Sequence record: NC_101835.1
Direction: 5' to 3' (one strand)
Source of the DNA: a phage
DNA: 64,000 nucleotides
The translations under genes and the position numbers were made by a program. Of the stretch, positions 20,878-46,056 are shown piece by piece. The notes beneath the pieces are model-generated. The model ran no database searches, was not told the DNA's origin, and was given only the letters and a program-made list of their open reading frames with translations. Every line of letters starts with the position of its first letter. Position 1 is the stretch's first letter.

Positions 20878-21079
20878 CACACAATTAGCTGCCCGGCTAA
20901 AGTGCTGGAAGCACCTATAACACATCTTTCAACTAAATTTCCTACCACCACAATCACTTACCTCCCACACATGACTGTTTGCTTGTTTAGTGAGCAGTCA
21001 TGCCTTGACATTCTTGCCTATCCTGATAAAATTAAGTTCTTCTCTTTTCTTTTACCGAGTAATTCGGGTTTTCTGTTCT

Positions 21080-21300
21080 CTTCGGTTTGAAGGGGTATGG
21101 AGATACACCTGAGTGAACAGGGTGAACAACCGAACCTTTGGCTATGGCATTAGCATGGCGAAGCGGACGGGTGACGAAAGAGGGGCCGGAGGACACCAGT
21201 CACTGCCATATGATATATGGGTGATAACCTGAAGAGTCTGAATAAGTGTTTAAGTACCAGTCAGAGGAAAAGGTGAATGGTAGCCGAAGGGGGGAGGGGG
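21080..21300. other. GC-rich structured island in ORF-free region (possible ncRNA)
   Basis: Several short hairpins with GAAA/GCGAAG-type loops, ends in GGGGGGAGGGGGGG; no ORF. Confidence 0.3.
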
Positions 21301-22439
21301 GTTTCTTGTATCTTTAATTTGTATATTATGTATACACTTGTAAACCAATCTAATCTGAATCTGTTTACCACACAAAGCGGATAGAGACAAATATTGCCTA
21401 TTAAACTTGAATTATTTATAGAAAATACCACAACACTACTTAAGTCTTTGATTTTACACACAAATCCTGCAGATATTCACCCTCCATATTTAACATACTT
21501 GTAACATATTCCATACTCTACCTGCCCGATCAATTCACCCAACTACATCCCCATATTTTCCCTGTCTGTACTACCCCTGCCCCGCCGGGAGTCCCATCAT
21601 ATCTGGCTTTCCAGCAAATATCACACCCACAAATATCATTGCCTGAAGAGGGTTTCATCCCATAATACCTGCCTTACCTGAAGAGCGCTTCATACACCAC
21701 GTAAATTTTTTAATTGACCTCCCCCTGCCCCGCCGGAGAGGTTGGCTTTTCCCACACAGACCTGAAGAGTCAGCCAGAAATATCTGAATAGGCCCAATTC
21801 TACCACGATTTTGACCTGACCTACAGGGAGGCCCGAAGGGTCTAGCTTTCAGCTAGAGTCCTTGCAGGACCTACAGGAGCGCTGCCAGGCGGACGGAATG
21901 GGAATACTTCTCATTCTTATAACAATTCTCAAATATCGAGGCAGTGAGAGAAATTAATAGGCCAGGCCGTTCACACAGTGGCACAACATTTGCAACCTAT
22001 TTTGTGTGGATGAATGAGAATACCTATCATTATGAGAATAGTTATCATTACTGGCAATTTAACATAATACCCATTATGCGCACCACTGGCGATCCATACA
22101 GGGATTGATAACATGAGTTACTGTTTACGCATATAACAATTATATTTATTACTATTTGTGTTGGGTATAGTTAGCAGCCGATAGATTAGATATTGACCTG
22201 CAGACTTCCAACTGTCTAGACGTCTAAACGCCCACACAGCAAGGATTATACATACACAACTGAATGTAAACAGGGCCGCAAAAATGCTACCATACCAGAT
22301 TGTAAATTTTTCATGCAGCACTTGACAAAGAGGAGGAAAACTTGTCTGACATACTGTGACATAATATGACATAATAGTGACACACTGGGCATACTCAACA
22401 CTGGATACAATAACAATTGTTACTATTGCATGCCTCACT

Positions 22440-22750
22440 GTTCACGCATAGATGATAAGCCATGCCATTCGTTTGCATGACAATAATTAACTTGTTTACA
22501 ATCTTTCACTGGCTATGCCAGGTGACCTTTGGTCACCCCTTCGGGTGTTTCTATGACATAATATAAAAGCAGGGCAACTATTAGAAGATCTATAGTTGCC
22601 TTGCTTGTTATGTCATGATTAACTAAATACAAGGCAACTATGATCTGATTAATAGATTGCAGACAAACTATCACGGGGGTGATGGTTACTGCTTTTATAT
22701 TATGTCGCGACTCCGTCGCGCCATGCCATTCGTTTGCATAGTTGCCTTAT
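22440..22750. repeat. nested palindrome and direct-repeat complex
   Basis: GCCATGCCATTCGTTTGCAT twice (22459, 22720); GGCAACTAT/ATAGTTGCC arms four times; GACATAATATAAAAGC inverted at 22555 and 22691. Confidence 0.6.
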
Positions 22751-23351
22751 TGTTACAGGTAAAATAATTACATTATTAATTATTTCTTATCTTTCTCTTA
22801 GTCATCTAATGATTCCAGTCAGTATAGTAATGTACAGTAAACATTAGACGACTAAATATTTCTCTGTTTATGATAACTCACCGTGACAATTTCGGACTGT
22901 TTACGAAAAATGTTGACACCTAAGCTGATTTATGTTATGCAGTTTACACGAATAATTATTTTATGCAGGTATTGACTATTCCGTTATTCTGTGGTTGGAA
23001 TAAATACTTTGCAGGCTATAGAATGGCGTGCGTACATGAATTCTGAGATCTGGCGGCTATAGTTATACTCGATTTTTCACGTAGAACACGCTTTTTAGTT
23101 TGTGTAAGTGTATGACTTATAAGAATTTTTACTTGTTGACAAGATATTGAAGATCTGCATCAGGTTAAAATTTGTGCAATAGCTGCATTACGTGCAATTT
23201 TGGAAGGGAAAACGGGTAAAAATAGCCCTGCTACCACACAATGAAAAGTTATGCAATAGTTATTTTACATGTATATTTGTACAGTGTGTGGGGTTGATGG
23301 CTCGTCAATTATTCCACTTGCCAGGTAGGGCCGTTTATGGTAGGAGAAGAG

Positions 23352-23381
23352 CAGACAAAAAGAAAGGGGCCTAAGCCCCTT
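23352..23381 (-). terminator. rho-independent terminator closing the leftward array
   Basis: On minus strand AGGGGC-tta-GGCCCCT followed by TTCTTTTTGTC, just after the stop of 23400-23819. Confidence 0.6.
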
Positions 23382-23399
23382 GATAATTCAGTTAAAAAA

Positions 23400-23819
23400 T
23401 TATAATGATTCGTATATTTCAAAAATCCGATTTGCCAGGTCGTTACGGTAGCGGAATTTTTCCTCACGTTTGATCATAAGATCTTTATAGCCGTACTCTT
23501 TAAGCACTTCATTAACTTTATGGCGGCATACTTTCATATTATCCTGCGCGTCACCAATAAATCTGTTGCTATGGTGCATGGCTTTAATTTCTTCTTCCAG
23601 GACCAGGGCAACTATGCGGACCGGATCAAGCTGATAGGCGGTAACATCCATGCGGCATTGTAAACGGCTTTTTACGTCTGCCACCGGATATACTGCAACC
23701 TCTTCCCCGTCAACATTGACAATAATTAGTTTACCATCGATTTCGAATCCTTTCGCCGCCGGACCGTGACAAAAAGCGTTATCAAAGCTATATGCCGGAT
23801 TATTAGATTTAATGTTCAT
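23400..23819 (-). CDS. hypothetical protein
   Basis: Own promoter (TTGACA-17-TATATT on minus strand near 23890-23862); RBS AAGAGG. Confidence 0.55.
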   Translation of the reverse strand: MNIKSNNPAYSFDNAFCHGPAAKGFEIDGKLIIVNVDGEEVAVYPVADVKSRLQCRMDVTAYQLDPVRIVALVLEEEIKAMHHSNRFIGDAQDNMKVCRHKVNEVLKEYGYKDLMIKREEKFRYRNDLANRIFEIYESL

Positions 23820-43356: not shown

Positions 43357-43632
43357 CAATAGTTCAGGTAGGTCGTTAAGCTACCCCGCACCATTACGTG
43401 CATAGCCATACGTTTTCACGTAGGATCGGACCATCTCATATTCCTATGATAAGCAACCACAGGAATCCTCCCATTTCGACCGCACTTGCTGGTCTACTTC
43501 CTTTCGGAATGGCCTCTGAGCGTTCGCTCTTTTGAGCGCTTCGTTGCGGATTACCTTGCCATAAGGTTTAGGCTTCCCGCAGTTAAAGAGGTTATTCGAC
43601 ATAGATTACTCTATGAAGCCACAATGTTATTT
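43357..43632 (-). mobile_element. group I intron in DNA polymerase gene, no ORF
   Basis: Exon 1 ends on U after ...IIYYH, intron ends on G before DE; splicing rebuilds the YYH|DE motif; 276 nt. Confidence 0.6.
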
Positions 43633-46056
43633 ATGGTAATAAATAATACGACGAACACCTTCATCGTACCACCCACGCTTCACCATTTGGTGGTGCATAA
43701 GTATCCCAACCAAGTCACACAGCGATGCACCACCATTCTGTTGATATGCATTAAGTAAAGAGTGTTTAGATCGGGTCCAGATGGCATGACCATCAAAAGA
43801 GTAGATAAACTTCTTACCCGTTGCTTCCCAGAATTTCTCCAGATCCTCTTTACGGCCCTTAAGACCAGGGTTGGCATCCCAAAGCGCATCGATTACCCTT
43901 TGTCCCAACTCTGGAGAGATGTCCAGCATATCTGCAACTTTATCTTTTTGTGCCCCGTACATAACCCCATACGTGATAGGTTTACCGTCGTTACGGGACA
44001 CCTCTCTACCTGCTACTTTTGTATATGCCTCAGCATTGTTTTGGTGTGCGTCCCCGTTACTTACAACATCGTAATACAGGCCGTTGTCGAACTCAAAGGC
44101 ACCCCAAGCCCCGATAAGCTGCTCTAAGTTGGACCCGTCAATACCGATCTCAAAGTATCCCGGAGGAACACCCCACAGACTACGCATCTCTTTACCCATA
44201 ACCACTTTAGGAGATGGTTTAGGCATGTTTGCACAAATACTGTGTTTCTGTCTGGAAGTGTTTGTTAATCCAGAGCTTTTAGCAGGAAGCTTATGGTCAA
44301 TCTTCAAACGTGGGTGATTAAGAAGACCAGTGTCAACCTTATCCTCCTTGATTGGATCAAGTACCGATCTGCGGTTTCGCAATGATAACCATAAGACGAT
44401 ATCTTTAGCCATCTCTCCGTTCAATTTTTCAAGATTCGGACACAGGTGTCCAAACGTATCTTTCAGTTGCGGAGAAGTAATAAGTGCCCTAGCTTTTCTA
44501 CGTATTTTCCCGAATACTTCCTTTTTAATCCTTTCGGAGTTAGGAAAGCTTCGGAACTTGTGCACTGTTGTCTGAAACTTAGCATCAGTTTTGTTCCAGA
44601 AGTTGATAATTAGGTCACAATACTCTGACTCTAAAAGCTCGTCCATGTATGCATATACTCGTGCATCAACATCTGCATCAGGTAGAGCTTTCTTCTTGCT
44701 GTCTTTAGTTACATCCTTAGTTCTCCACATTGTCGGAAGCCAACCAGCACTGATCAGGTATCGCTTAATGTCGTCCTGATTGCTGATTTTCATAGGTATC
44801 TTGCAGTCAGGCATTCGCTTCTGCTGCAGATCGCTTATTGCCTGATCCATCAGCTCTTTAGGCAAAGGTTGTGGTGTGGAGGTGCCCTTAATATAACCTC
44901 TCAAGAAATCAGCCATCTTGTCGGGGTCTTTGCAGCCCATCTCTTCACACCATTTTATCCCCATCTTACTGACATCTCCTGTGGAGGTAAATGCTCTCTT
45001 AGGCGGGGCTTTGAACTCTAGAGCGCTCATGTCTACAGGATAGCCAAGCTTATCTTTTAACCATTTCCAACCATTATTAGAGATTGTCCCGTCTTGGTTA
45101 AACGGCTTTTCAGGGAACTTGGGCCGCTGAGACATTGACAGCTCTTTTAAAGGCAGTTGTGGTTCAACACGATCAGCGATTTCTTTCATCCACGCATCGC
45201 AACGGTCACGTAAAGCAATAGCTCCATCTATGTCGAAGTATACACCCTGACGGGCCTGCAGCTCCATCAGGAAGTGCTGCAGCATGCCTCGACGTAATGC
45301 GTTCTTCCAGGTGATCTTCTTGAACCCTTTCGGCTTCTCTTTGGCAGGATCGTACATAAAGTTCTGCATGTCAGATTTGCCGTAGAATACACCTTTTGAT
45401 TCCGCTACCAGTTCTTTCCAGAGCAGCTCCTGGATGATAACGTCCTCAAATACACGATCCACATACTTCCACAACGGAAGATCGCGCCAGTCATCAATTT
45501 GAACTTTCTGGTTACCAAGGGCATAGCCCCATGCCATAAGGCCGTGGGGACCAACAGGCTGCATTTTCTTAGTAACCGGGTTGAATACAGCGTCCGGACA
45601 ACCTTTTGGTAAAGGGCGATCAGGCCACAAGATTCGGCTCATCGCCAACGTATCAAACAGGTTAACCTGGTGGTCGTTGATAGTCCCCATGCATTTAGGA
45701 TCACGGAACATATCAAAATGAATACCGGATAATCTTTCCATCAGCATAAAGTCATAACTGTAGCAGTTATGGCAGTTCAAAGCTGTTGGTGACCAGTCGG
45801 AATTGCCTGTAAGCCAACCTTCCAACTCCGAAAAATCTGCTATGCGAACTTCAAAACCTTTATAAAGAGTTTTCTTTGCCAGAATGAAGTTCTTAGCCTT
45901 TTCTATATCCTCCTCGGAGTAGTGTGTGCGGTCATTTAGAGGAAGGAACAGCATAAAACGGTTCTTATTCAGCTCTTTAAACAGGCCGCAGTGATAATAA
46001 AGATCTGGATCTTCCAAAAGCCCTGAGGCCTCCAGATCGAAGCACCAATTACTCAT
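43633..46056 (-). CDS. DNA polymerase A, exon 1 (3'-5' exonuclease and polymerase motifs A/B)
   Basis: Exo I FDLEASGL; motif B RNDGKPITYGVMYGAQ; upstream of motif C colinear with T7 gp5. Confidence 0.8.

Follow-up and report, generated by a model that had tools for sequence, protein, structure and literature searches.

The window, by which we mean the whole 64,000-nucleotide stretch of DNA analysed here, comes from a phage whose sequence identifies it as an rV5-like coliphage of the genus Vequintavirus; many GenBank records match it at 92–96% identity. Some 18–20 records labelled 'Campylobacter phage' (GenBank MG0656xx) are 93–96% identical to this E. coli Vequintavirus and are probably mislabelled or contaminating coliphages. 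The array of repeats that is our subject sits in a gap of ∼2.5 kb without genes (∼20878–23400), bounded by convergent gene blocks, with plus-strand genes to the left and minus-strand genes to the right. The records of relatives annotate no genes within this gap, and the switch in GC skew found there is explained by the convergence of transcription. In the rV5 paper the gap is drawn as a box labelled 'non-coding' in a genome called circularly permuted, and no terminators were found in it; according to the same paper, the phage has a family A polymerase and a primase-helicase resembling gp4 of T7.

On the right, a canonical terminator at 23364–23381 closes the minus-strand block, 650 bp from the array. 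We rejected the array as a set of terminators for the convergent blocks because the minus-strand block is already terminated at this point, and rejected a terminator-like hairpin at 22534–22547 as a gene-block terminator because it is absent from half of the relatives. The minus-strand gene that adjoins the gap (23400–23819, 139 aa) is an indel polymorphism, missing from roughly one relative in two. The left part of the gap (20878–21887) is non-coding, to judge from the relatives' annotation and the conservation profile, and lies at the right end of the unique part of the genome. It includes a stretch, 20911–21300, that is ∼100% identical in 12 relatives, a conservation above that of the flanking genes; this stretch carries a strong sigma-70-like promoter (TTGACA-16-TAAAAT with TG, 21005–21032) and a terminator-like hairpin (21055–21067), is GC-rich to ∼21300 and has no match in Rfam. 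It may be a small RNA or leader. Elsewhere in the window, a group I intron (RF00028, 64.7 bits, E = 4e-14) lies on the minus strand at 43407–43642.

The direct terminal repeat and its flanking iterons

The terminal repeats of related phages map within the gap. Gotham is annotated with a 459-bp repeat_region at both ends of its record (1–459 = 136567–137025), HdK5 has an exact 459-bp terminal duplication, and both map to 21888–22346 of the window; Korf et al. (2019) give the terminal redundancies of EdH4 and HdK5 as 458 bp. From this mapping we conclude that the gap corresponds to the junction of the physical genome ends, with the direct terminal repeat (DTR) placed by homology at 21888–22346 and present in the window as a single copy, as in a concatemer or a circularised assembly. 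The left end of the genome reads ...GCTGCCA/GGCGGACGG and the right end TTGACAAAGAGGAGGAAAACTTGTC/, where a slash marks the boundary.

The same kind of convergent gap holds the DTR of Klebsiella phage KPP-1 (genus Mydovirus), which is 514 bp long, is classed as 'T7 type' by PhageTerm and read coverage, and has left and right boundary motifs homologous to those of the window. The sequence of one isolate contig in IMG/VR opens exactly at /GACGGACA, and the repeat is found at either end of it. The left boundary, ...GYGCYA/GRCGGAC, is kept across genera. The right-boundary motif, TTGACA-N19/, is also conserved, yet the record of Shigella phage CM1 implies a right end further in: an exact tandem duplication of 523 bp (record positions 1289–2334) begins at the start base of the DTR and ends ∼62 bp further right, at ∼22408. 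This is the terminal repeat, which appears two times in succession because the record has been opened elsewhere. The lineage closest to the window would accordingly have a longer repeat (523 vs 459 bp), and the right end of the DTR thus appears to be lineage-dependent or imprecise. DTR lengths in the Vequintavirinae range from 435 to 523 bp. By homology to these relatives, the repeat of the window would be of the T7 type, that is, an exact repeat at both ends with fixed boundaries.

Inside the DTR, at 22015–22049 and 22162–22176, there are two to three copies of an operator-like palindromic box, TGAGAATAGTTATCA, that resemble four TGATAA-N4-TTATCA boxes of the KPP-1 terminus region; a dimeric protein may bind DNA at these boxes. 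Immediately outward of the left boundary is a hypervariable patch (21811–21860, 44% identity to relatives) in which a direct repeat, GACCTACAGG(G)AG, occurs twice, together with small hairpins. The patch mirrors the hypervariable iteron zone beyond the right boundary.

Short iterated repeats lie on both sides of the DTR. On the left, CCTGAAGAG occurs four times (21228, 21642, 21677 and 21761), and phage A5-4 has the same motif, as CCTGAAGAG or CCTAAAGAG. On the right, directly past the DTR, is a hypervariable zone of 107–220 bp with two kinds of iteron. Type-1 iterons, TGACAYAMT at ∼10-bp spacing (22347–22386, with units at 22347, 22357, 22367 and, in degenerate form, at 22378), start on the base that immediately follows the DTR boundary. 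They repeat the outer part of the left arm of the inverted repeat described below, and their copy number and sequence are hypervariable among relatives. The first three are the tandem TGACATA(A/C)T units noted in the preliminary description, which also read them as extended −10 elements. That reading is weakly borne out by a sigma-70-like site (CTGACA-18-CATAAT with TG, 22346–22375) formed from two type-1 units 20 bp apart; across the lineages compared below, no sigma-70 promoter was found at a consistent place, and four lineages yielded none. The type-2 iteron, ACTGTTYACRC with a ∼13-bp period, is present as one copy in the window phage (CTCACTGTTCACGCATA, 22429–22450) and as up to ∼12 in relatives. 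Counted with at most one mismatch, TGACATAAT is not enriched window-wide (19 found, 21.5 expected), and 6 of the 19 cluster at 22347–22707. At the KPP-1 DTR boundary, GACA-type iterons are absent.

Repeats and hairpins of the array

The array (22440–22750) follows directly on the DTR, 0–400 bp inside the physical left genome end. It had been proposed to be an origin, a pac site or an operator cluster bound by a dimeric protein, and the pac or terminus part of that proposal agrees with this position.

The repeats first described in the array are present, in part with adjusted coordinates. A perfect 20-nt direct repeat, GCCATGCCATTCGTTTGCAT, confined to Vequintavirus, occurs at 22459–22478 and 22720–22739, its second copy overlapping the fourth ATAGTTGCC (22720–22746). 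The reported 65-bp imperfect palindrome spans 22552–22616, with its centre at ∼22584. Copies of GGCAACTAT/ATAGTTGCC lie at 22573, 22592 (minus), 22633 and 22738 (minus); the second and fourth are in the reverse orientation, and the extra copies previously put at 22634 and 22740 are thus real but displaced by 1–2 nt. The far inverted repeat, earlier given as 22555/22691, had been understated: its arms, GACATAATATAAAAGCAG at 22555–22572 and CTGCTTTTATATTATGTC at 22689–22706, form a perfect repeat of 18 nt and stand 116 nt apart.

Between the arms, in the inner region 22573–22688, the GGCAACTAT/ATAGTTGCC copies at 22573, 22592 and 22633 permit nested or alternative hairpins, a further hairpin, AACTATCAC-GGGG-GTGATGGTT, lies at 22666–22687, and a conserved unpaired GTTA precedes the right arm. 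The two small hairpins of the preliminary description are both in the sequence. One, the 3′ GC hairpin CGCGAC-tcc-GTCGCG (22706–22720), follows the right arm and is itself followed by CC (to 22722). The other, GGTGACC-TTT-GGTCACC (22521–22537), belongs to an optional, terminator-like cassette at 22509–22551 that consists of CTGGCTATGCCAG, the hairpin and CACCCCTTCGGGTG followed by TTTCT; this cassette (GGTGACC...GGTCACC / CCTTCGGG) is missing in about half of the relatives. GGCTATGCC is common to small GC-rich hairpin cassettes that are inserted, in different phages, at differing positions (22509–22552 in the window, within the core in rV5, after the first copy of the 20-mer in SYGMH1), placed as if moved or copied by template switching. 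The array can also be described as five units of ∼30 bp (TGACATAAT, ∼10 nt, GGCAACTAT) in both orientations.

These repeats are beyond chance, since 1000 dinucleotide-preserving shuffles of 22440–22750 gave no exact direct repeat longer than 14 nt and no inverted repeat longer than 13 nt, compared with the 20 and 18 nt observed. Elsewhere in the 64-kb window, no stretch of 311 bp has an inverted repeat of more than 12 nt, against the 18 nt found here. GGCAACTAT occurs six times in the window, against 0.46 expected, and four of the six are inside the array.

Conservation of the arms in related genomes, which had been suggested as a check on the array, is found at both levels of comparison: arm symmetry is kept across genera, and 117 of 119 Vequintavirus records keep the core, at 95–100% identity or at ∼85% where an insertion is present. 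Motif order and spacing over 22552–22746 are identical in 13 of 14 relatives, in contrast to the variable iterons alongside. A 33-bp insertion lies within the right arm of the 65-bp palindrome in rV5 and some nine further records, and for this reason we do not regard that palindrome as the conserved unit. Within the genus, variable sites show no significant association with pairing (Fisher p = 0.33), variation here being too sparse. An exact scan of IMG/VR with the 20-mer found two contigs only.

Phage FV3 has a single copy of the 20-mer, with the left flank of copy 1 joined to the right flank of copy 2, and we interpret this as an exact loss of the core, by deletion from one 20-nt direct repeat to the other, with the endpoint in the second copy. 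The close relatives of FV3 keep the core. FV3 may be a genuinely viable mutant, or its palindrome may have been lost in cloning or assembly; if the FV3 sequence is real, the element is not essential, since this phage is without the core. Elsewhere the element occupies a syntenic site in all genera examined, FV3 alone being without it, by way of repeats specific to Vequintavirus. On this synteny we rejected a MITE-like insert for which FV3 would be the empty site. An invertible segment between the 18-nt arms was likewise rejected, because the orientation of the element is the same in all 15 Vequintavirus sequences.

Covariation across the Vequintavirinae

A motif internal to the DTR, ATTTAACATAAWAC-N3-TTATRCGCAC, retrieved 21 loci from IMG/VR on contigs of 120–153 kb, and the IMG/VR loci, KPP-1 and A5-4 together make up 15 lineages. 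A perfect inverted repeat is found in all 15, at 410–704 nt downstream of the motif, with arms of 16–22 nt that stand 71–204 nt apart and enclose hairpins; in most lineages it is followed by GC(N)GCGCC. The arms themselves comprise 14 distinct sequences. Examples other than that of the window are GACACTATAAAACGAG in A5-4, AGCGACACAATAACACGGGAG in KPP-1, GACCAATAGAAAACAGGT in CR3-like lineages and CCGCCATAGTCAGTTATGGAG in a further lineage (L026). Complementarity between arms is 100% inside each genome and averages 63% between lineages, and the arm sequence is semi-conserved only over its outer ∼9 nt (GACMMWATA). Between the DTR end and the left arm there are ∼5 to ∼400 nt, depending on the lineage. 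The left arm of A5-4 begins ∼5 nt past the predicted repeat end, with no iterons between, which suggests that slippage copied the outer portion of the arm to give the type-1 iterons of Vequintavirus.

Compensating changes extend to the smaller stems. The inner hairpins are formed by CGATCACGC/GCGTGATCG in some genomes and by CGATCAAC/GTTGATCG in others, and the 3′ GC hairpin of the window is homologous to, and covaries with, GCGCC-tac-GGCGC-GCC of other genera (GCGAC/GTCGC vs GCGCC/GGCGC). The 3′ flank, GTCGCGCC, is kept also in genera that do not have the 20-nt repeat. Seven long-form elements could be aligned, with a consensus fold of 62 pairs in which 96.1% of cells pair. Both-sided changes are seen at 16 of the 62 pairs, against 5.6 ± 1.6 in shuffled controls, none of which reached 16 in 500 trials; sliding the partners gives only 1–5 both-sided pairs. 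A covariance model built from the short forms outside Vequintavirus was discarded, as one clade dominated the alignment and the A5-4 arm was misregistered.

We conclude from these comparisons that the array represents a compound inverted-repeat, or fold-back, element that is kept with compensating changes across the Vequintavirinae. Its conserved unit is a perfect outer stem of 16–22 bp enclosing 70–200 nt that form two to four hairpins, followed by a small GC hairpin. The preliminary description had taken the symmetry to point to an operator for a dimeric protein. An operator of this kind is expected to be a short-spaced dyad of conserved sequence; the arms found here are 71–204 nt apart, are free to vary in sequence between genera and are fully complementary within each genome. 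Since the conserved feature is a set of covarying, long-range, nested stems, a dimeric operator is not the best reading, and these stems appear to fit intrastrand pairing better.

Possible role of the element at the genome ends

Arms that stand so far apart cannot extrude as a cruciform, so pairing would require a single strand. Under DNA parameters the two strands fold almost equally well, at −45.4 and −43.4 kcal/mol with z of ∼−10.5 for each. Starting from what is observed, namely the element's place at the termini, its architecture, the covarying pairs and the hypervariable iterons, we tentatively favour a cis-acting fold-back DNA element that serves in processing of the concatemer junction or in duplication of the DTR, a reading that we hold to be credible but somewhat short of probable. 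The element would act in single-stranded form, while head-to-tail concatemers are being replicated or processed. By folding back there it would prime, or set in place, the steps in which the junction is cut and the second DTR copy is restored, and the outer bases (GACAYWATA), like the TGACAYAMT iterons at the boundary, may be recognised by the terminase or by an end-processing protein.

Several observations favour such a role: the element is tied to the repeat boundary across genera, its outer motif is common to the element and the boundary iterons, the replisome of rV5 is T7-like and the KPP-1 termini are of 'T7 type'. There is also a T7 precedent, in that a DNA hairpin has reportedly been implicated in duplication of the T7 repeat.

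The likeness to T7 is considerable. In both, the direct terminal repeat is short, has precise ends and is bordered on either side by short iterated units, and the replisome is gp4-like with a family A polymerase. In T7 the iterated units are CCTAAAG(AG) arrays, which flank its 160-bp terminal repeat at the junction; in the window they are CCTGAAGAG, which resembles the T7 unit, on the left and TGACAYAMT on the right. A hairpin DNA species in T7 terminal repeat processing is mentioned in a passage that cites Chung and Hinkle (1990). There are also clear differences. The genes of T7 all run rightward, whereas here the flanking genes converge on the ends, and the phage is a myovirus with a genome of ∼137 kb. 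Within 250 bp of the T7 junction there is no perfect inverted repeat of at least 9 nt, in contrast to the conserved multi-hairpin element of 120–260 nt, closed by a perfect stem of 16–22 bp, that is found here. Since the T7 junction has no large perfect inverted repeat, we regard the element as a more elaborate variant and not as a T7 feature.

A branched fold-back, with an outer stem around smaller internal palindromes, is also reminiscent of the parvovirus-type inverted terminal repeats, which form T- or Y-shaped fold-backs that prime DNA synthesis, and a priming role for the present element is suggested by this analogy. The parvovirus hairpins are at the very ends of single-stranded genomes and occur in flip and flop orientations; the element described here belongs to a double-stranded genome, lies internally (∼0.2–0.9 kb from the end) and keeps one orientation in all relatives.

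The FV3 deletion, which counts against the fold-back role, is the main evidence against essentiality. The T7 junction offers no comparable large perfect inverted repeat, and the T7 hairpin precedent is a loose one. The DTR-to-arm distance is variable, the KPP-1 boundary is without GACA-type iterons, and the pairing statistics cannot tell single-stranded DNA from RNA. The perfection of the arms, moreover, could be kept by template-switch homogenisation and not by selection.

A bolder version, to which we assign only a small chance of being correct, is that the element is self-templating, acting as primer or template for regeneration of the second repeat copy, with the perfect arms rewritten in each cycle, or else that it represents a new class of structured phage RNA, in which case the transcript would be made from the first DNA to enter the cell.

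A replication origin or priming element, at which the T7-like primase-helicase would be loaded, or synthesis primed, as the linear genome comes in, seems to us unlikely. The two kinds of iteron at 22347–22450, with their variable copy number, would be in keeping with an origin, as would the AT-rich tract that follows the element (22755–22800), which has counterparts in KPP-1 and the CR3-like lineages, the T7-like replisome, and fold-back structures, which act in single-stranded DNA. The iterons, however, are not DnaA boxes: the type-2 units do not match, and no DnaA box (TTWTNCACA, at most one mismatch) is found in 22347–22460. The 219-bp iteron zone of one relative has two DnaA-like boxes at this threshold, where the window background is 2.8 per kb. 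Nor does an initiator gene adjoin the element; the GC-skew switch is accounted for by convergent transcription, and the FV3 deletion weighs against an origin as well.

We think it rather unlikely that the conserved product is a structured non-coding RNA read rightward, on the plus strand, starting at the end of the genome; such an RNA could, for instance, be the earliest transcript once the DNA has entered. With RNA parameters the plus strand is the more stable in all 15 lineages, by a mean of 8.5 kcal/mol, with 59 G.U pairs against 25 for the other strand; shuffle z-scores are equal for both strands, however, so that this asymmetry may be compositional. Wherever a pair in the alignment has changed on one side only, G.U results on the plus strand, with a conserved U.G among these cases, which hints at RNA or a plus-strand-specific form. 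A strict, strand-neutral mismatch count gives two G.U against no A.C, and we abandoned strand assignment from the G.T versus A.C count because informative sites are too few. As to expression, the iterons create the sigma-70-like site already described, and TTGAC(A/T) stands ∼30 nt upstream of the left arm in five lineages; against this, promoter placing is inconsistent between lineages, and a promoter 30 nt upstream would start transcription within the arm, leaving the outer perfect pairs unexplained. No conserved terminator was found after the element across lineages, and no Rfam family matches within the element at gathering thresholds or at E ≤ 1. A protein product was also considered and rejected: a 53-aa open reading frame on the minus strand of the window (22513–22674) gives no alignment at E ≤ 100 with the 52-aa CDS that overlaps the element in KPP-1.

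That the repeats are instead duplex sites for a phage protein, such as the small terminase, an end-binding protein or a repressor-like dimer, strikes us as improbable. In phage lambda, cosB contains R sites for the terminase small subunit in both orientations, around an IHF bend and beside the nick site, and looped sites of this kind could be envisaged here. Both systems have direct and inverted repeated sites immediately beside a packaging cut. The semi-conserved outer 9 nt of the arms, the iteration of the arm motif at a ∼10-bp phase at the DTR boundary and the five ∼30-bp units in both orientations are consistent with protein sites. The lambda R sites, in contrast, are degenerate, lie at cohesive ends and have no covarying stems. 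Protein sites are rarely identical over 16–22 nt within each genome while diverging freely between genomes. The inner hairpins show stem-like covariation, as do the variable inner halves of the arms, and the centre-to-centre spacing of the arms (87–226 bp) shows no helical phasing.

The least probable reading, which we consider very unlikely, is functionless repeat debris or a selfish palindromic insert produced by slippage and template switching near DNA ends: the flanking zones are indeed hypervariable and built of slipped short repeats, the GC-hairpin cassettes are found at different places in different phages, and FV3 is without the core exactly between the direct repeats, which would then be a target duplication, but the element is ancestral, with the same position and 3′ flank in genera that have no 20-nt repeat, its orientation is identical in all relatives, and palindromes are unstable, yet this architecture persists with compensatory change.

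As a descriptive analogue, the untranslated repeat regions of phage T5 appear to be the closest. Those of the T5 left terminal repeat have been put forward as a candidate injection-stop signal, a function that is not proven. As in T5, a large gene-free region lies at or across the terminal repeat boundary, holds nested palindromes, spaced far inverted repeats and tandem repeats, and is more conserved among relatives than neighbouring ORFs. The T5 repeats differ in having paired DnaA boxes and a fixed 52-bp spacer, where the present element has no boxes and variable spacing, and the T5 terminal repeat is ∼10 kb long and contains genes, compared with ∼0.46–0.52 kb of non-coding DNA here. Two-step injection is not suggested for the present phage.

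We found no description of the element in the searchable literature on rV5, PVP-SE1 and Septuagintavirus, and no transcriptome that covers the region. Regeneration of the second copy of a short DTR from concatemers is, to our knowledge, still only modelled, even for T7. If the self-templating view were true, the device would be a mechanistically new way to duplicate T7-type terminal repeats. The element also offers a compact cis-acting sequence, of 120–260 nt and with covariation, as a defined target for deletion and compensatory-mutation work. For annotation, the 2.5-kb 'non-coding' box of rV5, once placed in a circularly permuted genome, becomes a terminus region. The subfamily is large and therapeutically used, including rV5, PVP-SE1, CR3 and the Klebsiella Mydovirus relatives, and true ends and cis-acting elements matter for phage engineering, for genome rebooting and for correct genome start positions.
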